From Phoronis australis (taxonomy: Eukaryota > Animalia > Phoronida): a stretch of DNA of 64,000 nt. This document shows, in pieces, positions 517 to 54,270 of this stretch. Every line of letters begins with the position of its first letter. Within the stretch, counting starts at the first letter, position 1. Location of the stretch: assembly GCA_002633005.1 (NCBI GenBank), contig NMRA01000171.1:186001-250000 (forward strand), written 5' to 3'. A program made the position numbers and the translations under genes. The notes below the pieces were generated by a model. The model made no database searches. It was given only the letters and a program-made list of their open reading frames with translations, and was not told where the DNA came from.

Positions 517-1418
517 ACAACTGCTTCACAGCTCACGTGACCAAGAAACCAATTTCTCATTGGATATAACAAAGTGGAAATCGTAAATGTCTGAACTTTT
601 CCAGATGAGAAGGGTTTGCCAAATATTTGATTGATCAATATTCAATGTAGGATTGCTCAGTCAAAAGTTTCATAACAAATATTTCTGAAATCTAATCTCT
701 TCAGACGGTTCTGGCCTGTTGAATCGATGTTATTTTAGTTTTATAACTTGTTTCTGGAATCGTTCTTTAAGTAAAAGGCAAATTGTTATTCAGCGACTAG
801 GTTGGTACTGAAAATCTACTGGCGTCTCTGCCGACGACGGCGCCAACTTATCAGCAGTGAAAAGCGAGCGAACGCTGCTCGGACCGTTTTCGTAATATGC
901 TCAAGGCGCCACCACTTCAACAGGTTTGAAGAGCTGCTATGTTTATTTATTCCAATTCGAAATCGACAAAAAAGATCCAAAATACATTGCATAGTATCTG
1001 AAACATGTCAAATTGAGCAAAACAAGCCTTCAGAAGTTGGGCATATTACATTTGACAACCCCCTCCCCCCTCCTCCAACAAAAAGTCCTAGTTTAGTACC
1101 TAACCAGCAAGGCTCGTCTCCTAAAAACTGAAAACTAGCAAGGGTGACAGCTGTTCGACCTGGTGAGGCCCAACATCACCAGTACTGTTCAGTAGCAGCA
1201 CCAACATTCTAAATTATGTCTACGTATTTCAGAGAACAGCACAACAAAAGTGTAATTGGTTCCGGAGGCTATCTCGTGATATTTTCACACCTCCCACAAG
1301 TGCATTTGCGAGAAATGAAGCAAAACCACATTGCAGAATGGTTATTAATGTATCGAGCATTGACGAGCAGTCGGAGTCATGTGCAGAATGCGAGGAGGCG
1401 AAATAGTTGTCAGATTGG

Positions 1419-1425
1419 TATATAA
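1419..1425 (+). promoter_or_regulatory. TATA box of peptide precursor gene copy 1
   Basis: TATATAA about 60 nt upstream of the ATG at 1481; the paralog has TATTTAA at the equivalent position (15232-15238). Confidence 0.6.
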
Positions 1426-1480
1426 GGATAGTTTCTCAAGTGAGTAGCCAAGTACATTCTTTGCTACTGAAGAAACCGTA

Positions 1481-1543
1481 ATGGAGTTCAACTGTTTCCA
1501 AATATTTGCACTGCTGTCTGTTGTAGCTGTCTATGTAACAACG
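1481..1543 (+). CDS. Secreted prepropeptide copy 1, exon 1 (signal peptide MEFNCFQIFALLSVVAVYVTT)
   Basis: ATG at 1481, 21 codons with a hydrophobic core, then a consensus donor ACG|GTAAGT in phase 0; conserved in the paralog. Confidence 0.8.
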
Positions 1544-1660
1544 GTAAGTATTGTTGATGAAGGTGTCGGTTATTATAGAGCTTGAAACGTGTTACACTAT
1601 TCATACTTATGAAATATTTCGTGTTTCCAGATAGCGGGTTTTTGATTTTGGTCAAGCCTA

Positions 1661-1803
1661 TGCATGGGCGGCGCAGCACTGAAAAAAGTGGGGCTATAGC
1701 TCACCAGCCCCTCAGTGGTGAACCACCGATAGACCACAGACGGCGCAGCACTGAAGAAAGTGGGGCTATAGTCCCCCAGCCCCCTATGATGCGTCGCCCA
1801 TGC
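1661..1803. mobile_element. Small MITE in the intron of peptide gene copy 1
   Basis: Inverted ends gcatgggcggcgca / tgcgtcgcccatgc; absent from the paralogous site in copy 2; a shorter relative lies at about 11185-11253. Confidence 0.7.
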
Positions 1804-3919
1804 TAGTCCACTGATATGTCACAATGTCCTTCAGCGTGAGAGGTATGTGGCAGTCTGAAAGATAACACTGCCTCAGTTTTCACCAATATTATAATAACAC
1901 GTGATTGGTTTCATTAATAGAAATAAATCACTGAAACAGGAATATTTCATAAAATACAGCCCCGCATGCATTTTATTTATTTATTTATTTTTTATTGCCA
2001 GACTCGGTGCCTTTTAATTTAGTCGTGGGTTTTGTTGGTAAGCCTGCTAAACCACCAAAATTCAAAGAAAAAATAGTATGTCAAACTGAAGAAGCGTCAT
2101 TTCGGAGCGCGATTCGACTAGATTAGTCAGCTGCGACAAAGTTTGTCTTAGAATGCTCAATAAAAATAAAATGGAAAGGCGCCACAAAAATTGTTCGCAG
2201 AAAGGATATGCAATTTGATTGCATTTCAAAGTTGCATAGAACGTGAAAAACTGACTAAATTGCATTAATCAAAATGGTTCTCTGCCACCGAAACAGAATT
2301 CAATTTGTTCAGCAGGTACTCCTACGATTTGTTCCTAAGATCAAAAAAATTGAGCTTTGCGGCGCATCGTTTTCCGTTTTAACCTAGCGTGCACTAATCG
2401 TAGTTTTCTCATTCATTTTGCTGTACATATGTAAACAGTACCGATTCTCCTGCGTTCTCCACTAGAATAAAAATATACAATTTCATTATTCAGAGTATGA
2501 GTTATAATACGTAGTAAATGAATCTGTTCCCCAGATTAACATTGCCTCATGAGTTCTGCTTTAACGAAAAACTTGAAGCATTTTAAAACTAATGCATACA
2601 CTCATGATGCGACTCAAGTAACTAGTGTAGTGTAGAGCAACGGAATTTGTGAAACAGAATCGAACACATGAGTTAATCGTGTTGTCAGTGTTTGTACATC
2701 GCCTAGCACACTTTCGGAAGCCAAAAGTTGGATATTTAAACTTAGGTAAAAATATAGTGTAAATTATACTTTACTCTTATTTATATTGTTGTTGTGTTTT
2801 ATCTTGTTTCCATTCCAACGTCAGTTTGAAACGATTAACGTGACAAGAACTTATACACCTATAAGCTCCAGATCAGTCATAATTATGGATCATCGAATGA
2901 AACTAAAAAGGTCTAGTCACCCATTCGTGACGTGCAGGTGGCGCAGTGGTTGAATGGTGGCTCGCGGCCGGACTGGAAATCCCGGAATTGAATCGCTCCA
3001 CAGCCGTTACCCTGGAAGCGGTCGTTATGAAGGTATGAGCGGACAATATGAAAAACAACACGTGGACAGATTATGTACATATATCTTCAATGAAGCATAG
3101 CTACTAGAATTCAGGTGACTTTGGCGAAGAATTCCAACTTCACTTTTTGGTTATTGTTAACTTATTCACCGTGTGCGCGATAACAAAAAGTATTTCAACT
3201 GAGTCAAGTGAGTATGAGACAAAGGCTAACGCGAGACTGAGCGAAGCGCGTGACCTGGTGCGTGACACTTGCAAAATAGCATGGGAAGATATCAATTGAA
3301 ATTTGTAAGATTTGTGTCCCTTGGACTTTTTGTTCGTCAACAGGCGTGATTTCACGTAACTTCCTTAAAATGGCCCCCGGTTAGAGAAACTCGAGCGAAA
3401 CGCGAGGTTTTCATGGAGATGTTTAAGTTATTTGTTGACTAAATTGTATCCAGAGTCATGGTATATGTTAATTAAGAATTATGTGATTTACATTGATTAC
3501 ATTGATCAGGTACAAATGTCTCGTTTGAATACGTGTATTTATTTAACCCAGATACAATGCCTCTTGGCGCTTTCTAGGCAATGTATATTCATTGTACTGA
3601 AGATTTCGTAATAAACATTAAAAAATACATGTTAGGCATTGCTGTGCATTTATGCAGCTGTTGATCGCCGGATGTTTGTCTAAATTAAAATTGACGAAGA
3701 CCTGCGATATTGATTGATCGCGGTTAATGTTCTTTGAACCAATTCAACGTTCGTTGTTTATGGTTTGTATTTATATAATGTTCAGGAAACATTCAGAGCA
3801 ACGAATTTCTCCATTTTACATGGATATATTTTTATCAAATAATGGGTTTTGCATAAGCAAACAACAAATTTTTGTTGGAAAAATTGGAACAATAAAAATC
3901 ATATATTGCAGAATATTCA

Positions 3920-4320
3920 AGTTTTCAAAAGTTGAAAACGTAAATTTTGATCACATAGAAACCTTATAGTTTTTAGAAAACTTAAGTTTTGCGAAGAACT
4001 TAAGAAGCTAGCAAAACTTGAGTTTTTATAATTCAAAAAAAAACTTAAGTTTGAATAAGTTAAGTTTTTATAAAAACTTAAACTATTGCTTGAAACCTAA
4101 GGTTTATTTGTGAAAACGTAAATTTTATACTTGAAGAAACTTAAGTTTTCTGAAAAAAATTAAGATCTCTGAAAAACTTAAGATGGTGCTGAAAAATTTA
4201 GTTTTTCACGAAAAACTCGAATTAGAGTTTTTCCTTAAAACTTAAGTTATTTTGCAAAAAAATTAAGTTTCTTCGCCAAAACAATTAAGTTTTCATCGAA
4301 AAACGTATTAAGTTCATTTT
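3920..4320. repeat. Minisatellite of palindromic AAAACTTAAGTTTT units
   Basis: Many degenerate units; paralogous array at about 17880-18295. Confidence 0.8.
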
Positions 4321-4963
4321 TGTCAGGGTACCGTTGTTATATACATGTGCAAGGAATGTCAAAAATACTCACGCTTTAGTACAGCATCAGCAGTATAAAT
4401 TGAGTGACCGTAGATCTCGGACCACCAACCGGCCGAGCGTAGATGGAACTCTTCTCCTGGGCCTACCGTATGGTTACATTCATAGACATCATGAAACCTA
4501 TGGTTACATCAAATGTGAAAGTAGGCGAGTGAGCCGTTGCGTGTCCCTTTACGTACAAGAATAGCAAACGACTCAGTTTTGGAGGATGAAATTTTAGTGT
4601 GTTACTGATACGGGAAACTCAAAAACGTCAAGTGTAGACAGCAAGTATTCTAACCAAGTTAAAAGACAATTCATCGTTTTTGTTTAATTTTTTTTTTAAA
4701 TCATGAAAATTAAAATATGGTTTTAGTCACCCCTTTGTAAACTTAAATCAGTATTGTTGTTCATAAGTCAATAAGCAATGCAGTCGTGATTTGAAGTGTG
4801 GGTATGCTTTTAGGACATCCTGTGTATTGCTGTGAACTCACTTCAGACGTAACGTATCATGAAAGCCTACGATGTGGAGTAAGAAATTTGTTGCAGCAGA
4901 TTTTGCGCGAGAAAGAATGGTAGGCCTAAGTAAGAAATGTAAATCACACTTTTGTTTTTGAAG

Positions 4964-5188
4964 GCAAGTGGAGCAAGCATCAATCGGGAAACAAGGAATG
5001 GTGATGAAGTCAAAGTGGACGCAAAGCTTTTAAAGGCAGTAATGTCTCTGAATGGTAACTCTGGTGCAGATGACATTCCCGAAAGTCCAATGGAAAAGGC
5101 TGCAGATCCTCTTGCTGAGGCCACAAAAAGAGGACCCCAAGACGCCATACCAATTGCATGTTATTTTCACCGTTTGGATTGCAAGTAA
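4964..5188 (+). CDS. Secreted prepropeptide copy 1, exon 2 (pro-region, KR, mature GPQDAIPIACYFHRLDCK); allatostatin-C/somatostatin-like; 95 aa precursor
   Basis: Pyrimidine tract and AG (cacttttgtttttgaag|GCA), phase 0 matching exon 1; acidic pro-region, dibasic KR, two Cys six residues apart, stop; AATAAA at 5398-5403. Confidence 0.8.
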   Translation, partial: ASGASINRETRNGDEVKVDAKLLKAVMSLNGNSGADDIPESPMEKAADPLAEATKRGPQDAIPIACYFHRLDCK

Positions 5189-7849
5189 CAACGATGCATA
5201 TTTCCACTGCACGTGTGATTGGTTTCTTTATCCGTTTGACCCGCTCATAACATGAAGTCGAGTAACTTAGCTACGAAGACTGGTTTCCTCTCCACATTAA
5301 TTGTTTTTTACTACTAATTTCACCTTTATATCGGTCTTGTAACGGCAACACTTTTATAAGCTCACTCTCAGCGTATAGTGTACTGGTGTTACTTCATAAT
5401 AAATGCGCAGTACTTATGCAAATCATATCCTACATAGTATGTACTTGTCTTCGTATTACTCTGCTTTTCACATACTTTGAAGAATTCATTACGTCCAGAA
5501 TAGATACAAGCAAACGGTATGATGCTCACGCGTGTGGTTTAAACTACTGCGCTGCACAGGCTTGACCGACGTCATACTGAATATTTTCATTTTTGTTTTG
5601 TGAGTTTTGCTGAATTTATTGCACAAAGGGGGGAGTGGTAAATAGACACGAACCATCACCCGGAGGGTCTAGAAACGCGAAAGAACAGCCTCGTCATGTA
5701 ATGATGTACAATTATCGATTTTCACACTCAAGTTAACATGTTGGTTTTCAGGCCGAAAAATGAGGTAAAGACTGAGACGTGACCGGTAAGACCGTTAAAT
5801 ACTTACAACTGCCTCGGTCATTATCACTTTGGGGTCTCAAAACCAACACATTGACCGGAGAAAGAAAGATGATAATTGTTATGATTACATCCGCTAAGTA
5901 AGTCATGGAACGAGGTTAATTTATTTAAAAATAAATTCGTGGAATAAAAAATTTCTGAAAATGAAAAACAGGATGCCGGAATTCGATCATAACTTTCCTT
6001 GGGTGAGATGTTTATTTTTGTTATTGGGGAGTTATTAAAGTGTATCGAAGAACAGCGTAAAAACTTGATGAGATGTCTCTTTTAAACATTAATTTTCATT
6101 TCATAAGAAACGCCGACTTTAGAACAGATTCAAGAAAAGCGGGAACGGGCATTTTTTGAGGCCTAGTTTATAAGTAGCGTTGTTATGAAGTCGAACCTTC
6201 CTTGTTATTGAGTTAATGATTTATCTTCGTTGTCTGAATGAATAAACCGTGTCTGCCTTAAACGAAACAGTGAAACACTTTATTCAATGGATGGAATTCA
6301 GATTTTCCACTATTCACAAATAACTGACTAGAACACAAAGCAAAGCAAACAAATGAAAGGTTACCGTTTGTTTCATCACTCACTGAACTGCAATATCCTG
6401 AACAACTAGAATGACCGACCTGACAAATAACAAAAGCACCGTGGAGCGTTGATATTCGTTACAAAAATAATAAATATGACACTAAGTGGCGTAACGAAGG
6501 CAACTCCGTCTGAAATGAGGTAGGAGATGTCTCCCGAGCAGTTAACTTATCTGCCACCTACTGAAGAACTTGGTAGATATTAAAGAGGCCAGGAACGCGA
6601 GAAACAGACTAAATTGCATTATTTAGAATGGTTCTCTGCTACTGAAATAGAATTCAACCTGATCACCAGGTATTTTTACGGTTGTTTGTTAAAAATTTTG
6701 AATTTCTGGTGATGTCAAAGCATTTGTTTTAGTTTCAAATTTCAAAAAAGATCTGTCAACTGCTCGTCACTTCTTCGACTCTCCTTATTTGGTATAGCAA
6801 GACATAAACGTAACACATTTCCCTTGTATGGAAAGTGTGACATTTGACCTTTGATGTAAACAAAACAATGGCGACTTCTAGCAGCAATTGATGTAAGTTC
6901 TAATTGATTGAATTAGTTATAAAAGTATCATAGTATTCAAATACATTCTAAAATGCACTTGGAATTTAATATCTATCTTGTGAGTTGGCTATTTTTCGAA
7001 TGAATGTAATCGCATAGGCGCATTTATCTAGGTGGTAGGGAAATTGGAAACTCGGTGGTGACTAGAATTTTTCATTCGGCTGTATTTCAAAAATCGTGAA
7101 ATGTGGGTTTTTTCTGGATATTCCGCAAGGAAAGTGAATAAATCATGTCTTTATTAGACGTTGCGAGATGGTACTTTCGCCAGAAATTGTTTAAAAGATA
7201 TTTTTGGTGAACTTTCGCGTTCCATGCCTCATTAAGTAAACGCAAAATAAAACTGCTATTATAGAGGATCCCACAGTAGTCAGATATGTTTCAAAACCCA
7301 CGTCATATTACTCTCCTCACAAGAAGCTCTACCAAATCTCAAGAAGATCCATCAAAGAACTTGGCAGATATTGAGCCACACGCAAAAAAATGCCACTAGG
7401 GGCCACAGTTAGTGGTCGAAGCCGTATGAAAACCATAGTCAACCGTACGTGTTGTTCTCACTAGAAGCAAATGCCGATGTTTTGACCAAATCTTCGATCT
7501 GTTTGGCGTGTAAAACACCGTAGGAAACAGAATCAAAGTGTGCAAAAATGTTGGGAAATAATTATTGACTATAGGGTCTACTTCAATCATTGTAGCAGCA
7601 AAAAACATGTGTTCCGTTGAAGAAACTAACTTGTGAATTAGCCCACTAACACATACCACACGTGTCAACTTGTCTCTTATTCAGCCGTTCGTTTTTGCTC
7701 GAGACCCGTGGCAATTCAAGCTGTAGAGCTTTGACGCAAGAAGTACGGTAAATAAGCTAAATTGGTGTTTGTGACAGAAGGCGGGCTCATAACCACACTC
7801 GTTCGATACAATATTCGTCATTTTCCGTGCAAACGTTATTAAGTATGTA

Positions 7850-12905: not shown

Positions 12906-13979
12906 GTGCCACCTCCATCATCGATGGGCGACAATTCAAATCTATCGAATCAAGAATACCATTAGGGTGTTTGGTTTGTTTCGTCCAGCACCAGAGGTCG
13001 ATTTGATTGGCCGAGCGAAGTATTCTATGTGCGTTCACCCTACGATAGTCCTTGATACGGTTGCCATAAAGAAAACGGTAATCCATCTGAGTGCAAAAAG
13101 TGGCACAAATTACGTCACCATCATTCCTATTAAGTTCATTATAACTAGTCCTAAGCTTATTTTCAAATGGGACACAGTTAATAACAAGAAACATTATAAT
13201 TGCTTTAGCAGTGAATTGCGACATGTGATGTCTGACAATACTTTCAAGCACTTAGCCTGACAAAGATTTAGGTAAGAATCCTTTGTTTCGATTTTTGGCT
13301 GCCGTTTGTCATAGATTGCCTTAAAATTGTTTGTCGAATACCAATCAAAATCGAAGTCTTCTACAGTATCGCTTGTATACGTGCTGTATCTGTAAAAAGC
13401 AAATCGATGATTTGTTCCTGCTCTGTTAGTCATTTTCTTAATAAGTTATGCATTAAAGTATCCAATGAGGTGTTCGACCTGATGACGCTCAAGGGACTTC
13501 TGATCAACCATTTCTAGCGTTGCTGGGGCATCCTTTACGCGCAACATTGAAACTTGTGCACATCATACGAGAAACTATTGCCACATTGCCATTTTCACAT
13601 GTCATCGTAGATCATAGAGTAATGTTGCACATACCAGATAAATTGGTTACTGAAGAAACTGCGAAATGTGAATAGGTTTGTGGATCGTGAGACGAAGTGC
13701 GACTTTTCATTACAGACCTATGGAGTCGTGTGAATAAAAATTGACACACGTACTAATGTACACCTGGCACACGAAAACAATAAAACACGAAATAAATTTA
13801 CAGGTGTATGTTGAGAGAATCATGACTCTTCTTCGTCCCTTTCTAAAATTATGAGGGTTTTTGTCCAAATATTTGTGTTCTTCCGTTTCTATGGGAATGC
13901 GCGTTTAGCGGAGACGTTTGGATGTTCGGTTTAGTGCAGGATTGCTCAGCCAAAAGTGTCATTACATAATTATTTCTGT

Positions 13980-14970
13980 GATCTAATCTCTTCAGACGGC
14001 TCCGGCCTGCTGAATCGATGTTATTTTGGTTTCATAACTTGTTTCTGGCATCATTACTCAAGTAATAGGCATTTTTTAGTTAGCGACTAGGTTGCGTACG
14101 TCTATGCCAACGACGACGCAAACTTATCAGCAGTGAAAAGCGTTTTCGTAATATACTCAGTGAACCACCACTTCCACCGGTTTGAGGAGCTGCTATGTTT
14201 ATTAATTCCATTTCGAAAACATCCCTGATACATTATATTGTATCTGAAACATGCAAAATTGAGCAAAATAAGCCTTCAGAAAAAGATAACATTCCAAAAA
14301 TCACTCGTCCGCTTCCCCTTCGTAGTCCAACTTGGTTCAAAGGATTTCACGAAGTCATTGGGAAAATAATTGACCCCCCCAATAAAAAGTCCTAGTTTCG
14401 TACCTAAGTGACAAGGTTTGTCTCCTGAAAACTGAACACTAGCACTGAAAATTAGCCGGGTGACAGTTGTTCGGNGATCTAATCTCTTCAGACGGCTCCG
14501 GCCTGCTGAATCGATGTTATTTTGGTTTCGTAACTTGTTTCTGGCATCATTACTCAAGTAATAGGCATTTTTTAGTTAGCGACTAGGTTGCGTACGTCTA
14601 TGCCAACGACGACGCAAACTTATCAGCAGTGAAAAGCGTTTTCGTAATATACTCAGTGAACCACCACTTCCACCGGTTTGGGGAGCTGCTATGTTTATTA
14701 ATTCCATTTCGAAAACATCCCTGATACATTATATTGTATCTGAAACATGCAAAATTGAGCAAAATAAGCCTTCAGAAAAAGATAACATTCCAAAAAATCA
14801 CTCGTCCGCTTCCCCTTCGTAGTCCAACTTGGTTCAAAGGATTTCACGAAGTCATTGGGAAAATAATTGACCCCCCCAATAAAAAGTCCTAGTTTCGTAC
14901 CTAAGTGACAAGGTTTGTCTCCTGAAAACTGAACACTAGCACTGAAAATTAGCCGGGTGACAGTTGTTCG
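13980..14970. repeat. ~495-bp near-identical tandem duplication joined at an ambiguous base
   Basis: gatctaatctcttcagacgg...gacagttgttcgg occurs twice; the ORF track shows X at the junction (~14474). Confidence 0.85.
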
Positions 14971-15231
14971 GCCTGGTGACGCCCAACACCACCAGTACTG
15001 TTAAGTAGCACCACCAACATTCTAAATGGTGTCTATGTATAGCAGAAAGCAACACAACAAAAGAGTAATTGGTTACGGTGGCTGTGTTGCGATGTTTTCA
15101 CACCTCCCACAAGCGCATCTTAGAGAAATGAAGCAAAACCAAATTGCGTCAAGGTTATTAATGTATCCGGCATTGACGGTTAGCCAGAGTCATGTGCAGA
15201 TTGCGTGGAGGCGAAATAGTCGTCAGATAAG

Positions 15232-15258
15232 TATTTAAGGATGGTTTCTCAAGTCAGT
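15232..15258 (+). promoter_or_regulatory. TATA-like box and Initiator-like TCAGT of peptide precursor gene copy 2
   Basis: TATTTAA at 15232-15238 and TCAGT at 15254-15258, upstream of the ATG at 15294. Confidence 0.5.
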
Positions 15259-15293
15259 CGCCAAGTTCACTCTTTGCTACTGAAGAAACCGTA

Positions 15294-15356
15294 ATGGCAT
15301 TCAACTGTTTCCAAATATTTGCACTGCTGACTGTTGTAGCTGTCTACGTAATAACG
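15294..15356 (+). CDS. Secreted prepropeptide copy 2, exon 1 (signal peptide MAFNCFQIFALLTVVAVYVIT)
   Basis: ATG at 15294, 21 codons, donor ACG|GTAAGT; 58 of 63 nt identical to copy 1. Confidence 0.8.
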
Positions 15357-17065
15357 GTAAGTATTGTTGATGAAGGTGTCGGTTATTATAGAGCTTGAAA
15401 CGTGTTACACTATTCATACTTTGATTTTGGTCAAGCCTATGTAACACTATTGATATGTCACAATGTCATTCACAGCGAGAAGTATGTGGCAGTCTCAAAG
15501 ATAACGCTGCCTCAATTTTCACCAATTTTATAACATGTGAACGTTTTCATCAATGGAAATAAATCACCGAAACAGGAACATTTCGTAAACTACAGCAGTG
15601 CATTGCCAGATTCTTCAATAAAATAGAGAGTTTGGTGCCATTTAATTTAGTCGTGGGTTTCGTTGGTAGGCCTGCTAAACCACCACAAATTCAAAAAGTT
15701 GTTGCAAAAAAATCGGATGTCAAAATGAAGAAGCGTAATTTCGGAGCGCGATTCGACTGTAATATATTAGTTAGCTGTGACAAAGTTTTGTCTTAGAATG
15801 TTCAATAAAAATAATGTGAAAAGGCGTCTCGAAAAAACATTTGTTGGCAGAAAGGACATGCAATTTGAGTGCATTTTGTTGCATAGAACGTGGAAAACAG
15901 ACAAAATGGTATTAATCAAAATTGTTCTCTGCCACCGAAACAAAATTCAACCTGTTCACCAGGTATTCCCATGATTTGTTCCTTAGATCAAAAGATCATG
16001 CTTGCGGCGCACTATTTTCCGTTTTAACCTAGCGTGCACTAATCGTACATAAGTAAACAGTACCGATTCCCGTGCGTCTTCCGTTAGAACAAAAAATTCG
16101 ACACATGAGCATTATTCAGAGTATGAGTTATGATACGTTGGAAATGAATCTGTGTCCCAAATTAACATTGTCTCATGAGTTCTGCTTCAACGACAAGTAT
16201 GAAGCATTTCAAAACTAACATATACTCACACGATGAGACTCGGGTAACGAGTGTAGTGTTGAGCAACGGATTTTGCGAAACATAGCCGACTGAACGCATG
16301 AGTTATCCGCATTCTCAGTATTTGTTCGTCGCCTCGCATGCACTATTCATAGACTCAGTTTCGGAAGCCAAAAGTTGGATATTTAAACTTAGGTAAAAAG
16401 ATGAAATAAGTGTAAATTTTAGTTTATTCTTATTTATACTGTTGTTGTATTTTATTTTGTTTCCATGCTAAGGTCAGTTTGAAACGATTAACGCGACAAG
16501 AACTTATACACCTATAAGCTCCAGGTCAGTCATAATTATGGATCATCGAATGAAATTAAAAAATGTCTAGTCGCCTATTCGAATTCGGTGACGTGCTGGT
16601 GGCGCAGGGGTTAAGTGATGGCTGGCGGCTGGACAGGAAGATCCAGGGATCATGAAAAAATTTACAAAGCCCCGTTAACCTAGAAGCGGTCATTATGATT
16701 GAAGGTATGAGCAGACGATATGGAATATAACACGTGGACAGACTATGTATTTATAAATGCATCAGCCGACAGTATTTCTGAGTCAATAATTCTCCCTATC
16801 GACCGTTCATACTTTCATATTGACTGCTGCTATGGTAGCACCATTAAATCCCATTAAAAACTTTTGGCATATCATCATGATGGGTTCTTCCTGATCACAA
16901 TCCACTACTTCGCCACAGCTCCACCGGCACGTCACAGAAGAGGGAAGTCTCTTTTATGTTTTTTATGTCATCAGGATTCTGATAATATATATATTTTTTC
17001 CAATAACCGTAAGTAAAACAAATAGATGTTGCAATGCCGTGCAGTTACCGAAGAATAAAAATATA

Positions 17066-17250
17066 AAATAGCAAAACTAGTAAAACTAAAATGACGAGCG
17101 TCAGCACTAAAATATATTAAAATATTCCCACGTATCGAGCGATGCGCTCTTTCTCAAGGGTGTGCTACGGACATCGCTCGATACGTGGGGATATTTTAAT
17201 ATATTTTAGTACCGACGCTCGTCATTTTTGTTTTACTAATTTTACTATTT
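17066..17250. repeat. Long inverted repeat / foldback (about 79-bp arms, 27-nt spacer)
   Basis: Arm 17066-17144 is the near-perfect reverse complement of 17172-17250. Confidence 0.85.
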
Positions 17251-17479
17251 CGTAAATAAACCACTCGGTGAATACAAATTTCCATCGAGGCATCAGTTCT
17301 CTCCACGCTAAAAAGGCCTGGATCGCGAAAAACAGATTGAATTGAACAATTCAAAGTGGTTCTCTGCCACTGAAACAGAATTCAACCTATTCACCCGACG
17401 TATTCTTATGATTTTGAATTTCTGTTGATGTCAAAGCATTTTTATTTTACTTTCAAATTTCAAAATACTATCATTAGAG

Positions 17480-17695
17480 AAAGCAAAAAAACACTCTCCC
17501 CATGAGATCAGGCCAAAAATTTCTGAGTCTTGTCAGATTGGGGATGAGACACCTCTTTCAAATTTTAACGGGTCACAGTAACCTAGCGCGACACAGACAC
17601 ATTACTGGGCATATGGAGGGCCCAGTGTGTCCTGAGCGTGGCACTTACGTTCAAACCCTGAACACCTGGAACAGTCTTGCCCAGCTTTTTTTCGT
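17480..17695 (+). mobile_element. Non-LTR retrotransposon 3' fragment (C-terminal Zn-knuckle region, I/R1/Loa-like)
   Basis: LFQILTGHSNLARHRHITGH...VCP, then frameshifted PEHLEQSCPAF, matching the LTGH...C..C...EH....CP motif. Confidence 0.6.
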
Positions 17696-17879
17696 TGTTT
17701 TGTGATTTGTATTTATATAAATGTTAAGGAAACATTCAAAACAACGAATTTGTCCATTTTACATGGGTATATTTTTTCATTAAATGATAAGTTTTGCATA
17801 AGCAAACAAGAAATTTTTGTTTGAAAAATTGAGAAAACTTTGAACACTGAAAATACAATATCACATAACATTCAAATTT

Positions 17880-18295
17880 TCAAAACTTGAAAACTTGAAT
17901 TTTGATCATGTAGAAACCTTATAGTTTTCAAAAAACTTAAGTTTTACATAAATGAAAAACTTTTAAGTTTTGTGAAAAACTTAAGAAATCAAGAAAACTT
18001 TATTTCTAAAATTCGAAGAACCCTATTTTCGATAAGTTTTCATAAAAACTTAAGTTATTGCTTGAAACTTAAGGTTTATTATACTTGAAAAAACTTAAGT
18101 TTACTGAAAAACTTAAGTTCTCTGAAAATCTTAGGTTTTTGACAAAAAAATGTAAGTTTAAAAACTTAAATTTCTTTTAAAAACAAAAGTTTTTCGTAAT
18201 AGTTTAAGTTTTTCCTAAAAAACTAAGTTATTTTCCAAAACCTTAAGTTTCTCTGACAAAAACTTAGGTTTTCATCGAAAAACTTGAGTTCATTT
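17880..18295. repeat. Minisatellite of palindromic AAAACTTAAGTTTT units (copy 2)
   Basis: Same motif and intronic position as 3920-4320. Confidence 0.8.
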
Positions 18296-18907
18296 TTATG
18301 GGTATTGTTGTTATATACATGAACAAGGAATGCCAAAAAAGTACTTACATTTTCGTACAGCATCAGGAGTATAAATTCACTTCCCTTAGACCTAGGACCA
18401 CAAATCGGCCAAGCCTGGGCCTACCGTATGGTTATAAAAGAATCTATGGTTACATCAAATCTGAAAGTAGGCGCGTCAGCCGTATCGTGTTCTTTATGCA
18501 CAAGAATAGCAAACGACTGAGTTTTGGAGGATGAAATTTTATTGTGTTACTGTTACTGGAAACTCAAAAACGTAGAGAGTAGGCAGCAAATATTCTAACC
18601 AAGTTAAAAGACAATGCATTGTTTCCGTTTAAACTTTTTAAATATTTTAAAGGCTTTAAATTAAAATTTCGTTTTTGGTCACCCCTTTGTACGTTTAAAC
18701 CAGTTGTTCATAAGTCAATAAGCAATGCAGCCATTGAGATTTGAAGTGCACGTTTTTCTGACGTCCTGTGTACTGCTGTGAATTTGCTTAAGGTAATGTT
18801 GCCTATACCCTGAGACGTGACGTAAGAAATTCGTTGCGGCAGTTTTTTGTGATAATAAGAATGGTAGGCCTAAGTAATAAATGTAAATCACACTTTTGTT
18901 TTTGAAG

Positions 18908-19150
18908 GCAAGTGGAGCGAGCATCAATCGGGAAACAAGGAATGGTGATGAAGTCAAAGAGGACTCAAAGGTTAAAGAATTCGCAGAGCTTTTAAAGGCA
19001 ATAATGTCTCTTTATGGTAACTCTGGCGCAGATGACATTCCCGAAAGTCCAATGGAAACTGTTGCAGATCCTCTTGCTGAGGCCACAAAAAGAGGACGCC
19101 AAGACCTCAGAGCAATTGGATGTTATCTTCATCCGTTAGATTGCATGTAA
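18908..19150 (+). CDS. Secreted prepropeptide copy 2, exon 2 (pro-region, KR, mature GRQDLRAIGCYLHPLDCM); allatostatin-C/somatostatin-like; 101 aa precursor
   Basis: Same acceptor as copy 1; frame intact despite an in-frame 18-nt indel; CYLHPLDCM resembles the AST-C core CYFNPISCF. Confidence 0.8.
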   Translation, partial: ASGASINRETRNGDEVKEDSKVKEFAELLKAIMSLYGNSGADDIPESPMETVADPLAEATKRGRQDLRAIGCYLHPLDCM

Positions 19151-20191
19151 CAACGATGCATATTTCCTCCAATACACGCATGGTGGGTTTCTCCATCCGT
19201 TTGACCCGCTCATAGAATGACGTCTGACTAACTTAGCAACGAAAGTTGGCCCTCCCAACAAGAGTACAGACTGGTTCCCTCTCCACGTTAATTGTTCTTT
19301 ACTACTAATTTCTCTTTAATATCGGTCTTGTAATGGCAACACTTTATAAGCTCACTCTCAGTGTATACTGTACTGGTGTTACTTCATAGTAAATGCGCAG
19401 CACTTATGCAAACCTTATTCTACATAGTGTATTCTTGTCTTCGTATTATACTGCTTATCACATACTTTCAATAATTCATTATGTTCAGGATAGTTACAAA
19501 CAAACGCTATTTTATCCTCCAATCATAAAACCTTAATGGTAAATAACTAATGGGGTAAGACGATCACGCGCGTGGTTCGAACCACTGCGCTGCACAGGCT
19601 TGATACTGAATATCATTTTTTGTTGTGTGAGTTTTGCAGAATTTTCTGCACAACAGGGGGAGGGGGTAAACTGATTATTCCATGCCCTCGGTACTTATTT
19701 CCCGCTTCTAGACCACAAGAGGGATTTGGAGGAATCATCGGGAACTAACTGCCTTATAACGTAATGATGACCAATTCTACTGATTTTCATGCTCAAGTCA
19801 ACATCTTACAGTCCTAAAAATGAGATATTAACTGAGGCATGACCGGGGTCCTTTTCATCTCCGGTAACGAGCTTGTGACGCACGTATTTTACTCGAGGCA
19901 TATGCTGAACACACGTATTTTACTCGAGGCATATGCTGAACATAAATATATTTTCTAAAAGTGAAAAGCCTGTAGAATTTGTTTTTATTATTTTTTTACC
20001 AGTCTACCAATAATCAAAGGACGATGTCTTTTTAGTAAAATTTAGTAAAAACAACGTTATCAAGATTTGTTGAAAATGAAATCTCAACAACACTGGAGCT
20101 TTCTAAATTTTTGTTTCCTCGTTTTATGCAACTTTTGAGCTCTTTCATTAAAATCATCAGAGTGTAATTGTTCTTTGATAGTCCCTCTTAC

Positions 20192-23666: not shown

Positions 23667-23819
23667 TCACTTGAGGAAGCCGTTCTTCTTGAAGTCAGCC
23701 ATGACAATCTCCACCTGTTGGGGCATCAGTGGCTGAAGTGGCATTCTCAGTGGGCCACCATAGAACCCAAACCATTCCATGGCTTGCTTTAATGCAGGCA
23801 CACCAAACCGCCGTGTTAC
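23667..23819 (-). CDS. HOGA1: HOGA1 exon 7 (VTRRFGVPALKQAMEWFGFYGGPLRMPLQPL...NGFLK, stop)
   Basis: tttcag| ... TGA; 153 nt; total CDS 1017 nt, 338 aa with a single exon 4. Confidence 0.95.
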   Translation of the reverse strand, partial: VTRRFGVPALKQAMEWFGFYGGPLRMPLQPLMPQQVEIVMADFKKNGFLK

Positions 23820-24928
23820 CTGAAATCAGAATGTTGGCAGATTTGTTTATGATTCACAATGCTTTAAAGCTATGAGTTTAATCCCATCAATTAAAACAAA
23901 TTTTGATTTATGCCACTTGTCTTTGCAAAACTGGACTCGACTCATTTCATTTTCAGATAGCAAAACATTTTAAGAGTTGTTATCTGAAATTGAAGTTTTG
24001 CTATTGCTTGAAACTTGGTTCAAAAGTTGGCTTGACATGCCAATTTAATTTAAAATGCCCACAGCAATAGGTCTGGCCAAATAGGCTGGTTCTTTGGCCA
24101 AACAATAGATCGAGTACTACTAGCTTAACTCGTTATCGCATATGTCGTCAGCCTGCACAAGTCGTTATTTTTTCTTGGTTCCGATTACACGGCCATTCAT
24201 TTATATGTAAAAGCCTTGTGGTTAAGCTGTCGTTTCTAAGTCATCATCTTCGCCTGACTCGTTGCTCCAAAACATCACATCGACAAAAAAAATAACCAAA
24301 GTTATTTTAATAAAGAGACAATATCTCCTTAAATTCATAAATGAGTGAATTATCCCAAACTTAAGTCGAGAATTCAACATAACCAGATTAAAAATTATGC
24401 AAATGACTATACTGACAAATCCCGTAATTTGTCAAGTTTCAAACTGTGGTTTACCAATTGTATTCTAAACCTTTCTACCTCAATAGCCATAAAAAAATTG
24501 AGAATTAACAACCAGGCATCCATGCTTACCAACACCAACTGAATTATTCTCACGAGCTTGGATTTTCCCTTCTCCTACCAAACAGTTTTCTTGCTTCACA
24601 AGTAAAGCTCGTGATCTCACTAACCTACATTCGCAACTTCAGCGATCCATCAGTTACTTCGCTTAAAAGTAACTAAAATTGCCAGTTTTGTTTTTCAGAG
24701 AAAATCGATCATGCAACAAAAATCCAATTTTCATCTGTTGTTTTCAACAGCTGTAAAATACAAACTGTGTTGAGAATGATGTATAATTTCCATTTTTATT
24801 TTGTTGCACAGTTTGCCGAAATAAATCCCACTAGTCTGCCTTACAACGTGATAAATAGCTGGAAAATTAGAGTTGGTATGGTTGAATGTGACCGCCAGGT
24901 TTGAAAAAGTTCTGAAAGGTCGACTCAC

Positions 24929-25062
24929 CGCACCATTAGGAGAGACAAGCCTCTGCTGCAACAGCCTGGCCTCCTCTGACTGTCCCTTTAGGAACAACTG
25001 CTGGAGCTGACACACCTCCTGACCCAGAACATTAGCTAGGGCACACACACCTCCAACACAGC
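24929..25062 (-). CDS. HOGA1: HOGA1 exon 6 ([14 protein letters not shown]...[11 protein letters not shown])
   Basis: atgcag| ... |gtgagt; 134 nt. Confidence 0.93.
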
Positions 25063-25393
25063 CTGCATGGATAGAGCTGGAGTCAGTGAAAGGTTGAACA
25101 GTGAAATCTCAACTATTGCAAAGAAAAATGTTACCCTTTTTCATATGTCAGAAGCTTCTAATGTACCATTAATGTGCAACATAGAAAAACATCAACAAGT
25201 CACCAGAGAATATTAATGCCAATACATGACTCAGTCAAGCAGTCATCAATGAGCAACTGTAGTATAAAACGTCAATGTACAAACCCAGTCACAAACCATT
25301 CACAACAATGATCTACTTTACAACTAACAAGTCACCATAGTCTAGTCATAGCAAGTATAATCAACAAGTCAATACTGGTCATGGCTAACTTAC

Positions 25394-25490
25394 CTACTGT
25401 CAACGCAGGATAAAGAAAACTTGCAGAGCCAGCCAAGATTTGGAAGCCAGAATCTTGAGTGTGGTACACCAAATTGGCAAGTTTAGCTAC
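25394..25490 (-). CDS. HOGA1: HOGA1 exon 5 (VAKLANLVYHTQDSGFQILAGSASFLYPALTV)
   Basis: ctgtag| ... |gtaagt; 97 nt. Confidence 0.93.
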
Positions 25491-26571
25491 CTACAGCAAC
25501 ACCAGTCAAATAAATAGAGTCTATATTCAGACGAATTTCATAAGACATAGGTGGAGTTCTTAAAATAAATTGAACATGACCGGCAGTGGCCGTAATCATT
25601 CTCACAATGATGTTAAGGTGAACTTGAAGACACATCATGAGTTCTCGCCTTGAATCACATAATATCATGTCATAATATGGCCCAAGGTGGCAACTGCAAA
25701 TTCACTTAACCACCATTCTGAGGATGACCGCAACCACTGAAGGCTGAAAACATCCAATTTATTGTAAGTACTCCATTATGTCTCATGAAGTTTACCTGAT
25801 ATATGACTCACCAATCGGATGAAAATATTTAGTGAGAGTCAATATTGTATAGACAATGTACTATTCTATCCAGCATCATCAGTATACTTTAGAAGACAAA
25901 ACAAAATCACAAAACTAATGCTTTGAATACAAAGCATTTCATATTATAATCTAAACTGTGGATCTTATCGTATACATGGGCATCATAAAATGCTTATCAT
26001 TAACATGGTAGAGTTCAAGTTTGAGCATGTTTGTGACAAGGGTGAAGACTGACGCAAAGTCCAAAGTACACATGGGTCCCTCGGGCCAACAAACGTATTG
26101 AAGATCTTTCTGATGCGCACCAGTTAAAGCAAACTTTTATCCCAAGCTACATTGGATGGATAAAATACAGTACAAGCCAGAATTATTCAGACAAAATGAC
26201 GCCAGGGCAGAAGCCAGATTCATCGTCACTGTATGTGACTGATAATGAATGGAAATTTAGAGGAAAATTAGAAACTAAGGTGAATATGAAATTGTAGAAT
26301 TTTGTTGTCAATATAGTTGTAACGGTATGAGAAATTGTTGCTACTAACAAAATTGACTGTAACGGTGAAAAATATTACTTTATTGGATTACTTTTGTCTT
26401 GCACTATACATACTTGAGATGTTACTGTAGTCATATTTTTGAAATGATGCATTGCTTTGTTTTCACCTGAAACTGGTTTCCACAATTAAGTCAGGGTTCA
26501 CATACTTTCCAGTCCTATGGAGGCACATGATTTTGCCCAATAACTTTGAACACTGGCATGGTATTCACATT

Positions 26572-26642
26572 GCCAGCCTGATAGGATTTGAACCCCCATA
26601 CCAAGATAACAAAGGGAAGACCTCAACCACTACACTACCACC
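26572..26642 (-). mobile_element. tRNA-derived SINE head (degenerate)
   Basis: Minus strand reads TGGTAGTGTAGTGG (A-box-like) ... GGTTCAAATCC (B box); no complete cloverleaf. Confidence 0.5.
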
Positions 26643-27246
26643 TCATCCTTAGAAATCCCGGAATAACACATATTTTAGTTTTCATTATCATATCCAGACA
26701 ATAGTGTTGGTGCTGCCACCTTTTGTGTTTCCATGACATTACATCGCAGGCACATGCAGATGTACTAGCTGTCATAGCCAACACAGACCCTTATAAGGCA
26801 AAATTCGGCTGAAACAAGTGAAAATACAGAATAACACAATTGGCACTCTTTATCACTATGTTCCGGCTAAATACCTAGTGACAACATGATTTACTACAAC
26901 ACAGTCGAAAACAAATCAGACAAAACATCGTTTTCTCTCCAATACAGCCAATTCAGTTATACAGCAGAAATGATTGCCAATAATTGTAATGAGAGCACAT
27001 AAACACTGTAGGTGTCTCAGATTTTTTGTAAGCTCCCAGTATGTCTCATGTACTGGCAGGTGCAGATTGTAATTTAATCGTGGTACATTTCAAGTACTCT
27101 CGAAGTGGCTATAACCACGACTACCATCACAAAAACCAACTTTCAATTCAGACCACTTTCTGTTACGAAATTGGTCTAAAACTGTTCCTCAGTCAAATTA
27201 GATGTAGTTCCTGGGCTTGGACAGAACTAATAGGTGATTATTGCTC

Positions 27247-27390
27247 GAGATCAGACTATACAAGTTGGCTTGTCATGGCGTCTCATGTTATTGGTTGAGA
27301 CCAGACTCTACAAGTTGGCTTGTCACGGCGTCTCATGTTATTGGTTGAGATCAGACTCTACAAGTTGGCTTGTCACGGCGTGTCATGTTA
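27247..27390. repeat. 50-bp tandem repeat, about 3 units
   Basis: gagatcagactctacaagttggcttgtcacggcgtctcatgttattggtt-like units start at 27247, 27297 and 27347. Confidence 0.9.
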
Positions 27391-27748
27391 TGCACTGAGC
27401 ATGGTCTCAAGGAATAACAAACTATAAGATCTAGGCAAGCCAAGACGTCATTTGTCATCTAAGTAAAGAACAATTTAAGACTAATTTCACAGCTGTAAGT
27501 GGTCTAAATCAAAAGTTTCCTTCTTGGACAAACGTTGGTTTATAACGGCTTTATATTGACATCGTGTCAAAATACACTGTATTACTGTTAACTCAGCCTT
27601 CACCCTTACATTCTTACTTACTTACTAATTGGATATCCTAAAACAAATATAATGCGCTCATATCTGAATTTGGACTCCTGCTTCTCGTACAAGCACATGC
27701 GTCTTATAATACACACGTGCATCACAGATAAGGTACAAGTGTGCTTAC

Positions 27749-27883
27749 GTCTCCCCCGCTGTCTTTCAATCCGACAATATTGGGGTGTTTTGACAGCCTG
27801 ACAATAGACTCAGGCAACAGGTCAATGCCCGTGTTCCCAGGGACGCTGTATAGAATTACTGGCACAGGAGTCTCATCAGCAAC
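27749..27883 (-). CDS. HOGA1: HOGA1 exon 4, copy B (duplicate, probably the other allele or an assembly artefact)
   Basis: Identical peptide with two synonymous differences (GTG/GTC, TTA/TTG); lies in a 711-bp tandem duplication joined by N at 28240. Confidence 0.7.
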
Positions 27884-28459
27884 CTGAAAACAAACACAAA
27901 ATTGTATGTCATTACCTCGGCATAACAGTGTTCGCTGCGTTAATGTACAAGTATTCACATGTGATATTTACAGAGGAATTAATGACAGTATATGATAAAT
28001 TAGGGCTTGGAATGACCAATGACAAAAAAGAGGAAATTTTTCCAGGTGATGCATTGTTCCACAAATGTATAGGGGTGTGCAATTTGGTCTTATGCCCCAT
28101 ACAAATACTTCAGAAAATATACAATAAATCTCATTTGAGCAAAATTGCAGTCTCTGAGAATACACAAATAAAGCCACTAGAGATAATTTCTATTTCAAGA
28201 CTGTGACTATCTCATAATTTACATGGTTAAACCTTGTTTNACAAACGTTGGTTTATAACGGCTTTATATCGACATCGTGTCAAAATACACTGTATTACTG
28301 TTAACTCAGCCTTCACCCTTGTGTTATCGAACTTACTAATTGGATATCCTAAAACAAAAATAATGCGCTCATATCTGAATTTGGACTCCTGCTTCTCGTA
28401 CAAGCACATGCGTCTTATAATACACACGTGCATCACAGATAAGGTACAAGTGTGCTTAC

Positions 28460-28594
28460 GTCTCCCCCGCTGTCTTTTAATCCCACAATATTGGGGTGTT
28501 TTGACAGCCTGACAATAGACTCAGGCAACAGGTCAATGCCCGTGTTCCCAGGGACGCTGTATAGAATTACTGGCACAGGAGTCTCATCAGCAAC
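28460..28594 (-). CDS. HOGA1: HOGA1 exon 4, copy A ([15 protein letters not shown]...[13 protein letters not shown]; catalytic Tyr and Schiff-base Lys)
   Basis: tttcag| ... |gtaagc; 135 nt; phase 0-0. Confidence 0.9.
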
Positions 28595-29938
28595 CTGAAA
28601 ACAAACACAAAATTGTATGTCATTACCTCGGCATAACAGTGTTCGCTGCGTTAATGTACAAGTATTCACATGTGATATTTACAGAGGAATTAATGATAGT
28701 ATATGATAAATTAGGGCTTGGAATGACCAATGACAAAAAAGAGGAAATTTTTCCAGGTGATGCATTGTTCCACAAATGTATAGGGGTGTGCAATTTGGTC
28801 TTATGCCCCATACAAATACTTCAGAAAATATACAATAAATCTCATTTGAGCAAAATTGCAGTCTCTGAGAATACACAAATAAAGCCACTAGAGATAATTT
28901 CTATTTCAAGACTGTGACTATCTCATAATTTACATGGTTAAACCTTGTTTGGCAATTGTGAAGTAAGAACGTAAGACCATATTTGTCTCAAGTCTTAAAA
29001 ACAGGGTCCCCATCACATTGTCGGACAAAAAACAGCAGCAATGAAGATTAAACAATGACCAATTTTTTGTGTCAAGAAACATGATTAAACAAAGCATGCA
29101 GAGCCACTGAAGAAGCAATGAACCTCACAAGAGAAATGGCGTTTAAGTTGCACAGTTCATAAAGTTGCAGTAAAATATCACAAATTTCTGATAAATATGA
29201 TAAATACTGTCTTTCATTATTCAAAGTTTGTTAACATTGTTGTGAATGCCCAAAACTCTTCAAAATATTCTCCAATAGTGACTGTTGTATGGAACATGAA
29301 AATGGCAAAGCATTAACACAGAGAGATACATATTTTCATGAAGAAAGGAGAGAGCATAATTTCACTTGGTCACCATAAAATTGGTGAGATTTCACTCAAT
29401 GTGCAAAACATCCCCAAAGAACATGTGCAACTAGCAAGTAAAAAGTGGGGAAAAACATCAAAAGAAAAAAAATTACCCGGAGGATAACTTTGAATCAGGT
29501 TCATAAAACAGCAGAGGGGCACTATTAAGAACTTTAATTTTGCATGCCAAATGTGTGCACGAATTGAATAGCACCATTGTCAGGAGGAGGGGGGGGGGGT
29601 CCCCATAAAAGTGGTCAGTATAAATGTGACACTAACTCAGGAGAGTATTTCTCCATCTCAGATATAGTCCTGGGTGAGAGTTTCATCTTCTCGGTTTTGT
29701 CTTAGGTCGGTAAATCAAGGTAGTGGTGACCAAAGAGGGGCCATTTCACCATTCGGTATTGTCTTGTGAGGCCACATTGCATTGGTCTGGATTTTGAATT
29801 TACAGCCTCACCACCTATCCATTATGAGAGGGAGAACCCCAGCTGGTGCCAGTGTGGCTAAAACGCAATCAATTTTGAACTCAAGAGTAGATTAGAAGCC
29901 ATCTCTAGTGTTGTAAAAGGTAGATGTCACCATCAAAC

Positions 29939-30066
29939 CTTCAGGTAGTGTTTTTCCAAAGCATCAGCTGTCATCTGGGTCTTGTAGTAAGATGGTGTCA
30001 CAACCAGCACTGCATTGGCACCTGCACTAGCCATCTTTTGTGAGAGAGAAATAGTGTCACGGGTCG
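29939..30066 (-). CDS. HOGA1: HOGA1 exon 3 (TRDTISLSQKMASAGANAVLVVTPSYYK...HYLK)
   Basis: ttttag| ... |gtttga; 128 nt; frame continuous with exon 2. Confidence 0.95.
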
Positions 30067-31087: not shown

Positions 31088-31216
31088 ATTCACAGCCAGA
31101 GCCTGCTACGATTAGCTTTTTCCCAGAAACATTTTGCTTCACAAACTTCACCATGTCTACCCTTTCGTCAGCAGTCATGAAAGGGTACTCTCCATTGGAT
31201 CCTTGGACAACATATC
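31088..31216 (-). CDS. HOGA1: HOGA1 exon 2 ([14 protein letters not shown]...IVAGSGCE)
   Basis: tttcag| ... |gtaagt; 129 nt; GSNGE substrate-binding motif. Confidence 0.95.
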
Positions 31217-37682: not shown

Positions 37683-37730
37683 GTACAGTAGGTGACATTG
37701 CTGTTTGTGCCAAGCAGGTTTTTATATTAA

Positions 37731-54131: not shown

Positions 54132-54270
54132 NNNNNNNNNNNNNNNNNNNNNNNNNNNNNNNNNNNNNNNNNNNNNNNNNNNNNNNNNNNNNNNNNNNNN
54201 NNNNNNNNNNNNNNNNNNNNNNNNNNNGTGTGTGTTGTGTGTGTGTGTTGTGTGTGTGTGTGTGTGTGTA
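54086..54270. repeat. (GT)n microsatellite spanning an N gap
   Basis: GT runs flank Ns at 54132-54227. Confidence 0.95.

Follow-up and report, generated by a model that had tools for sequence, protein, structure and literature searches.

When the hormone part of a precursor differs more between two neighbouring paralogs than the rest of the protein does, has the peptide been recruited for external use, for instance as a toxin, or has it been left free to change since the duplication? This question is raised by a 64,000-nucleotide stretch of the genome of Phoronis australis (contig NMRA01000171.1, positions 186,001 to 250,000), hereafter, the window. Self-BLAST reveals within it the direct duplication of a unit of about 5 kb (646–5642 versus 13935–19670, 75–86% identity), and each unit contains one small gene on the plus strand. 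Judged from their sequence, the two copies, hereafter, A and B, are tandem, intact two-exon genes encoding predicted precursors, which by architecture and a short motif fit the allatostatin-C (ASTC) type. The reading we favour, with a probability of about 0.45, is that the peptide ends diverged at an approximately neutral rate through relaxed constraint after the duplication, mostly in the tail outside the peptide's ring, with the rest of the transcript remaining alike. The pattern is likely that of ordinary paralog divergence, by relaxation or sub-functionalisation of a signalling peptide, and a recruited toxin is not demonstrated.

The exon model of both copies was derived from the sequence and its conservation, with splicing predicted accordingly, and comprises the following features.

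646–5642, plus strand: duplicated unit A, gene copy A with its flanks, delimited by self-BLAST
1419–1425, plus strand: putative TATA box of copy A (TATATAA), 56 nt 5′ of the ATG
1481–1543, plus strand: coding part of copy A exon 1, a predicted 21-codon signal peptide MEFNCFQIFALLSVVAVYVTT, with a GTAAGT donor in phase 0
1544–4963, plus strand: copy A intron, GT..AG, phase 0, 3420 nt
4964–5131, plus strand: pro-region of copy A exon 2, 56 codons, with KR at its end (5126–5131)
5132–5185, plus strand: predicted mature peptide of copy A, GPQDAIPIACYFHRLDCK, with a C-x6-C ring
5186–5188, plus strand: stop codon TAA of copy A
5398–5403, plus strand: AATAAA, likely polyadenylation signal of copy A, about 210 nt past the stop
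13935–19670, plus strand: duplicated unit B, gene copy B with its flanks, delimited by self-BLAST
15232–15238, plus strand: TATTTAA, a TATA box variant of copy B at the homologous place
15294–15356, plus strand: coding part of copy B exon 1, MAFNCFQIFALLTVVAVYVIT, with a GTAAGT donor
15357–18907, plus strand: copy B intron, phase 0
18908–19093, plus strand: pro-region of copy B exon 2, 62 codons including an extra VKEFAE, with KR at 19088–19093
19094–19147, plus strand: predicted mature peptide of copy B, GRQDLRAIGCYLHPLDCM
19148–19150, plus strand: stop codon TAA of copy B
19388–19393, plus strand: AGTAAA, a variant hexamer of copy B homologous to the AATAAA of copy A

The two genes share their architecture in every part. 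Both are interrupted by a GT..AG intron of about 3.4–3.6 kb in phase 0, with the borders …ACG/GTAAGT after codon 21 and …GAAG/GCA at exon 2. The second exon of copy A begins at 4964, right after …TTTTTGAAG; the acceptor context is the same in both copies, and the reading frame is open only from 21 nt 5′ of the acceptor. The signal exons have a hydrophobic core (mean Kyte-Doolittle hydropathy over residues 5–19 of 2.33 in A and 2.34 in B), and they are followed by an acidic pro-region of 56 (A) or 62 (B) residues that ends in KR directly ahead of the last 18 codons, giving a second exon of 74 versus 80 codons. Neither pro-region contains a second KR, RR, KK or RK pair. Unit A aligns to unit B in four self-BLAST blocks (646–1035, 1072–1608, 1812–3083 and 3750–5642), and the exons and exon edges are the best conserved parts of the duplicated unit. 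The promoters are about 85% alike, with 27 mismatches in the 181 nt upstream and the TATA position shared.

The first-pass annotation had described a toxin-like asymmetry between the copies, and its counts are reproduced. Three of the 21 signal-exon residues differ (E/A, S/T, T/I), as do six of the 56 aligned pro-region residues, beside one in-frame indel of six residues (18 nt); in the mature peptide eight of 18 residues and 12 of 54 nt differ, two codon changes are purely synonymous (CAC/CAT and TTG/TTA), and the cysteine codons TGT and TGC are unchanged. The asymmetry between the mature region and the signal plus pro-region (prepro) goes beyond chance, both for residues (8/18 versus 9/77, Fisher p = 0.0032) and for nonsynonymous differences (9/43 versus 10/178, p = 0.0037). 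Moreover, pairwise codon modelling with the intron's kappa gives a better fit when the two regions are allowed separate values of omega (dN/dS; likelihood-ratio statistic 10.36, p = 0.0013). The peptide region changes about five times as fast as the remainder of the protein.

The position of the change is sharply defined. Successive 27-nt segments carry 1, 1, 2, 3, 2 and 1 mismatches along the pro-region (10/168 nt in total), followed by 5 and 6 in those of the peptide; on this map the rise starts exactly past the KR site. The asymmetry is qualified by a patch of the 3′ untranslated region (5207–5260, 11/54 mismatches) that is as diverged as the mature region. As a neutral yardstick we used the alignable intron, in which 362 of 2177 sites (16.6%) mismatch. 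Against it, the prepro coding sequence lies far below (15/231, p = 4e-6) and the 3′ untranslated region as a whole (5189–5400) also lies below (23/211, p = 0.013); the mature region stands at or slightly above the intron level (12/54, 22%, p = 0.18; nonsynonymous differences 9/43, p = 0.28). Five of the eight replacements fall in the nine-residue tail ahead of the ring and two in the ring itself, which keeps six of its eight residues (C, Y, H, L, D, C). The kind of change is also uneven: C↔G transversions make up five of the 12 mature substitutions and 27 of 362 in the intron (7.5%; p = 0.0012, for a class picked post hoc), and all five lie at first or second codon positions and replace amino acids (P/R, A/L, P/A, A/G, R/P).

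Conservation also extends from the exons into the intron. The first 66 intron nucleotides (1544–1609 and 15357–15422) are identical in the two copies (p = 6e-6, or about 0.014 allowing for some 2200 start sites), which makes them better conserved than the adjoining signal exon (5/63 mismatches); a 34-nt deletion in copy B follows. The last 54 intron nucleotides carry three mismatches (p = 0.015). The identical start may have arisen by conversion, or it may serve as a regulatory or splicing element of the intron.

None of this amounts to diversifying selection on the mature peptide, which had been proposed from the asymmetry and which the codon models leave unsupported. By the Nei-Gojobori method (NG86) the mature region has dN 0.247 and dS 0.333, an omega of 0.74, with 0.50 for the prepro-region. 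Maximum likelihood gives the mature region an omega of 1.18 when its distance t is its own (p = 0.82 against omega = 1), of 1.55 when t is fixed to the intron distance (95% confidence interval 0.72–2.99, p = 0.25), and of 2.47, with 0.47 for the prepro-region, when t is shared with the latter (p = 0.085). Every interval for the mature omega includes 1, so that omega above 1 is not shown there, and the estimates remain far below the mean pairwise dN/dS of 3.04 given for cone snail consomatins in the corresponding part of PMC9048919. On the intron clock the prepro omega is 0.30 (0.14–0.53); prepro synonymous divergence (5.5/53 sites) lies below the intron level, with p = 0.20. Tail and ring differ within the peptide. 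The tail has six nonsynonymous and no synonymous changes, with an omega of 2.33 (0.88–5.46, p = 0.088) on the intron clock; a likelihood-ratio test with free t gives p = 0.026, Fisher's test p = 0.15, and a comparison of its dN with the intron rate p = 0.10. The ring has two nonsynonymous changes in 20 sites and three synonymous changes in four, with an omega of 0.14 (likelihood-ratio test for omega below 1, p = 0.059), or 0.66 (0.11–2.26) on the intron clock.

Both copies look alive, as far as their reading frames and signals tell. The aligned intron blocks contain 42 indels in 2177 sites, 33 of which would shift a reading frame, and the coding sequence contains a single indel in 285 sites, which is in frame. 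A coding sequence free of frameshifts would have a probability of 0.013 with both copies neutral and of 0.115 with one neutral, and in simulations of one neutral copy drifting by 8.3% the reading frame, start, stop and splice dinucleotides all stay intact with a probability of 0.26, or 0.12 when KR and both cysteines are included. A copy dead since the duplication is unlikely, at no more than a few chances in a hundred.

To which family would such peptides belong? The somatostatin-related hormone suggested by the first-pass annotation came close; the architecture is that of the ASTC type, with C-x6-C, a single C-terminal peptide and a phase-0 intron, and it lacks the WK motif. AstC is defined, in the passages of PMC8786951 on this peptide, by two cysteines six residues apart and one peptide per precursor, and the rings of copies A and B, CYFHRLDC and CYLHPLDC, have this spacing. 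Each precursor has a single C-terminal peptide after a basic site (KR) and begins, by hydropathy, with a signal peptide, the 21-residue exon with its hydrophobic core. A phase-0 intron in the N-terminal part is described as conserved in SS/ASTC genes, and as the only intron of the scallop ASTC gene, in the gene-structure part of PMC7536072; both copies have such an intron, as predicted from the sequence, near the border of signal peptide and pro-region. Neighbouring ASTC paralogs are known in arthropods, according to the same passages of PMC8786951.

The rings themselves can be compared with those of the family. Section 5 of PMC8851493 gives F-x-P as the ASTC ring motif, with P replaced by A, V, L or I in some lineages. 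Copy A reads F-H-R at these positions, retaining F and having R for P, and copy B reads L-H-P, retaining P and having L for F. With F preserved in copy A alone and P in copy B alone, a common ancestral ring CYFHPLDC is plausible; if this was the ancestor, a hallmark residue was replaced in each copy, F by L in B and P by R in A. Rings listed in the supplement of PMC9048919 include CYFNPISC in insects, CFLSPVQC followed by M in nematodes and CFFHAVSC in nemerteans, and those of copies A and B share with them Y, F or L, H, P and the aliphatic residue. A stretch of the pro-region, LLKA(V/I)MSL (5024–5050 and 18986–19012), resembles by eye the LL..LM.AL of AstCC-type precursors in that supplement; as a lead, this stretch may form a conserved helix, which would account for some of the constraint seen in the pro-region.

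Other cyclic peptides were considered and set aside. A somatostatin or consomatin type is rejected, since both peptides lack W and both rings lack K, so that there is no WK motif. The loop size likewise does not match the somatostatin or urotensin type, the ring here having six residues and not four or 10–15: the loop has four residues in UII, in URP and in the SSRP-like peptides of protostomes, and 10–15 in SS/CST and echinoderm SS2. CCHamide, CCAP, vasopressin-type and calcitonin-type peptides presumably differ in the position of the peptide in the precursor or in ring size.

With these elements, the favoured sequence of events can be set out. Both genes would be translated into preprohormones that enter the secretory pathway and lose their signal peptide; a prohormone convertase would cut after KR, a carboxypeptidase would trim the C-terminal Lys of copy A, and oxidation of the two cysteines would close a six-residue disulfide ring. 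The cyclic peptides would then act on a G-protein-coupled receptor of the allatostatin-C/somatostatin type. These processing steps are predicted from what is generally known of preprohormone biology. The duplication would be old enough to have accumulated the 16.6% intron mismatch, after which the tail and one hallmark ring residue per copy would have been free to change.

Several observations weigh against this account. Relaxed constraint alone leaves both the excess of C↔G changes (5/12 versus 27/362) and the six-to-zero ratio of nonsynonymous to synonymous changes in the tail (p = 0.026 with free t) unexplained, and on its own synonymous rate the prepro omega is 0.59, not significantly below 1 (p = 0.37). 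The family assignment has its own difficulties: none of the ASTC sequences compared has R at ring position 5, as copy A does, or D at position 7, as both copies do, the residue after the second cysteine is K or M and not the usual F or Y, and no sequence search links the copies to a known family. A Pfam scan returned nothing credible, with DUF4484 (E = 0.11) under the cut-off. In a word index of 5.8 billion proteins the exon-2 product found no candidate, and the two-copy alignment found 204, none at E ≤ 10. The ESM Atlas gave no usable match, its best score of 0.78 being under the lead threshold, and none of 376 pattern matches in metagenome contigs was confirmed. A literature string search with the peptides, precursor fragments and hypothetical ancestral ring motifs found no paper, and the two supplements searched, those of PMC9048919 and PMC8557429, contain no matching precursor; one may exist in the supplements of bioRxiv preprints or in other papers. 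Since these searches found no relative, the family call rests on architecture and short motif; since ASTC precursors are short and fast-evolving, failed similarity searches are weak evidence against membership.

Four other explanations compete with relaxed constraint, and the five are not fully exclusive. Partial gene conversion may have homogenised exon 1 with the DNA around it, the 5′ stretch of exon 2 and some of the 3′ untranslated region, leaving the mature stretch to show the older, true divergence; the asymmetry would then reflect the ages of segments and not selection, unless tracts running into the peptide were selected against. In keeping with this, low divergence spills into the non-coding DNA by the exons (0/66, p = 6e-6; 3/54, p = 0.015), prepro synonymous divergence is below that of the intron, if not significantly (p = 0.20), and the mature region sits at the intron level; and because the prepro omega (0.59) does not differ significantly from 1, the likeness of the flanks is possibly due to conversion and not to purifying selection. 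Yet at least three separate tracts would be needed, all sparing the same 54 nt and one bordered exactly at KR, and five mismatches in the 63 nt of exon 1 beside 66 identical intron bases are odd for a single recent tract. Because several tracts must all spare the same 54 nt, we rank conversion second and consider it unlikely. A further possibility is the decay of a single copy, more likely B, that drifts neutrally over its full length, part of the regional contrast then being noise. A single neutral copy predicts about 8.3% mismatch, to which the prepro-region (15/231, p = 0.40) and the 3′ untranslated region (23/211, p = 0.17) conform, the prepro omega is compatible with 1, and where copy A reads TATATAA and AATAAA, copy B reads TATTTAA and AGTAAA, although both variants may still work. 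The mature region, at 12/54, is far over this expectation (p = 0.0013), the sole coding indel is in frame, and the reading frames, splice sites, KR, both cysteines and stop are intact in both copies, for which the joint probability in a copy neutral since the duplication is about 0.115 x 0.26 = 0.03, or 0.014 with the cysteines and KR. Decay of one copy is for these reasons improbable, more so than conversion; a copy that was recently relaxed, rather than dead since the duplication, may be compatible with the integrity statistics.

Diversifying selection would mean that one or both peptides serve as a toxin, deterrent, pheromone or other arms-race ligand on a prepro scaffold that is kept. It would account for the contrast between a mature omega of 2.47 and a prepro omega of 0.47 with shared t (p = 0.0013), for a tail with six nonsynonymous and no synonymous changes (p = 0.026 with free t), for the excess of rare C↔G transversions, all of them amino-acid-changing (p = 0.0012), and for the sharp border at the cleavage site, and the pattern equals that of consomatins and other hormone-derived toxins as far as the passages on these describe it. 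Against it, a mature omega above 1 is never significant (p = 0.82, 0.25 and 0.085) and is 0.74 by NG86, the tail reaches only p = 0.15 by Fisher's test and p = 0.10 for dN against the intron, and the substitution-spectrum test was picked after the data had been seen; there are two copies in 64 kb, set against the hyperdiverse consomatins, and promoters about 85% alike with the same TATA position give no sign of a change of tissue. We therefore regard selection of this kind as doubtful, and equally so its corollary that an ASTC-type gene was duplicated and one or both copies are being reshaped as an external peptide, which would be the first ASTC-derived counterpart of the consomatins, at the two-copy stage. 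The relevant parts of the literature that we searched on hormone-derived toxins name no ASTC-derived toxin. Least probable is that kinship with ASTC is illusory, the locus being an unrelated, lineage-specific gene for a secreted cyclic peptide, or no real gene, with C-x6-C arising by chance. The sequence searches gave no homologue, and a loose pattern (C-x6-C at most 16 residues past a dibasic site and at most four before a stop) has three further chance occurrences in the six frames of the window; but conservation centres on the exons, both copies have a TATA box, a signal exon of hydrophobic character and intact canonical splice sites of equal phase, the ring residues Y, F/L, P and L are common to ASTC rings, and the intron lies, in phase 0, where the family has it. 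Relaxed constraint after duplication remains the reading we prefer. The observation that two paralogs are conserved in the prepro-region and variable in the peptide is by itself no evidence of positive selection, because neutral divergence of the peptide beside constrained or converted flanks looks the same.

The non-coding parts of the two units, and the rest of the window, hold further features. A TGACG half-site lies about 120 nt 5′ of both ATGs and is conserved (1361–1365 and 15174–15178); we take it to resemble a cAMP response element. Past its variant hexamer, copy B first has a canonical AATAAA at 20496, and both expression signals of copy B look weaker than those of copy A. Degenerate tandem repeats of 18–23 nt based on AAAACTTAAGTTT occur in both introns (3956–4314 and 18089–18229). 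The conserved intron block 2690–2910 was considered as a hidden coding exon and rejected, with stops in all six frames. No third copy or older relative was found in the 64-kb window by tblastn (E ≤ 50) or regular expression, and an Rfam scan of the window matched no family.

About 38% G+C, long introns and retroelement debris across the window identify it as eukaryotic DNA; its long retroelement-like open reading frames have no Pfam match at E ≤ 0.001. Downstream of the peptide genes, on the minus strand, lie the exons of HOGA1 (4-hydroxy-2-oxoglutarate aldolase, DHDPS family; 23673–33065), and beyond it an open reading frame with a C2H2 zinc finger and one with a THAP domain. Neighbouring genes and open reading frames lie at

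23673–33065, minus strand
37442–37753, plus strand
37966–38187, plus strand
45394–46736, minus strand
52160–52798, minus strand

The HOGA1 protein is 52–66% identical to the 25 homologues compared, with about 60% to bivalve and nemertean proteins, and in a tree of 26 rows it falls outside the clades of echinoderms, vertebrates, anthozoans and chelicerates and outside a weakly supported mollusc group, and does not group with the one nemertean included. The protein database used includes many invertebrate proteomes, none of them from a close relative. The assembly contains three head-to-tail repeats of 0.5–1.25 kb with 97.5–99% identity (13974–14971, 27519–28955 and 47415–50146), each with a single N at its junction (14475, 28240 and 48904), and a gap of 96 N at 54132–54227. 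The three repeats look like assembly joins that duplicate contig ends, and not like true tandem duplications. One HOGA1 exon appears twice on the minus strand (27737–27913 and 28448–28624) inside the repeat at 27519–28955; the doubling is more likely an assembly artefact, and if the repeat were real, HOGA1 would have a duplicated exon.

If the ordinary reading is true, the locus adds a tandem ASTC-type pair from an animal lineage that the databases searched do not cover, its ring variants (D before the second cysteine, R for P) widen the known range of ASTC, and the two peptides form a natural pair for work on receptor structure and activity. The pair would join a known neuropeptide family, with a pattern of conservation that is unusual and, at two sequences, under-powered. 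If instead a toxin or pheromone reading is true, the copies would represent the first steps from an inhibitory hormone to an external peptide before family expansion, a stage rarely observed, and use as a toxin, pheromone or deterrent would be new for ASTC.

How do the two genes compare with known systems? Among hormone-derived toxins, the parts of PMC9048919 and PMC12962067 that deal with the subject describe a signature of conserved signal and spacer regions with a divergent active-peptide region, and copies A and B share this pattern, as the first-pass annotation had held. Cone snail consomatins and their parent SSRP-like genes, as presented in that part of PMC9048919, have in common with them a hormone-type precursor, a conserved signal and pro-region, a divergent disulfide-looped peptide and an origin by duplication. 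They differ in having a WK motif and a four-residue ring, where copies A and B have a six-residue ring without WK, and in forming a large, hyperdiverse family with a dN/dS of 3.04, where there are here two copies with omega estimates that include 1. The SS1/ASTC-type and SS2/SS-type precursors of echinoderms likewise end in a cyclic peptide that follows a dibasic site, and their genes have an N-terminal phase-0 intron. They depart from the present genes by the larger rings of SS1 (10 residues between the cysteines), by a second, phase-1 intron in their genes (gene-structure part of PMC7536072) and by the FWK/IWK motif of SS2 (relevant section of PMC8851493).

Another parallel is the nemertean allatostatin C2, a peptide confirmed by mass spectrometry in Lineus longissimus (PMC8557429). 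It is also a second ASTC paralog in its lineage and shares C-x6-C and the aromatic-F-H start of the ring (CFFHAVSC versus CYFHRLDC); it differs in the second half of the ring (A/V/S versus R(P)/L/D) and in ending in Y followed by GRK or GK. Searched in the supplement of PMC8557429, the motifs of copies A and B gave only chance matches, in unrelated receptors and glycoprotein hormones.

Among the closest known systems are the ASTC precursors of protostomes, with which the multiple ASTC-like nlp genes of nematodes are grouped. Differences are the lack of detectable similarity, D before the second cysteine, R for P and K or M after the ring, and the fact that the peptide is the least conserved part between copies A and B, where endogenous peptides are usually most conserved in the peptide part (according to the passage concerned in PMC12962067). 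The resemblances cover the whole plan of the gene: a signal peptide, one C-terminal peptide after a basic site, C-x6-C, and a ring whose Y, F (or L), P and aliphatic residue stand where the family has them. As described in the parts of the literature concerned, the scallop ASTC gene has the same phase-0 intron near the border of signal peptide and pro-region and no further coding intron, and the neighbouring AstC, AstCC and AstCCC genes of arthropods are side-by-side paralogs, as are copies A and B.

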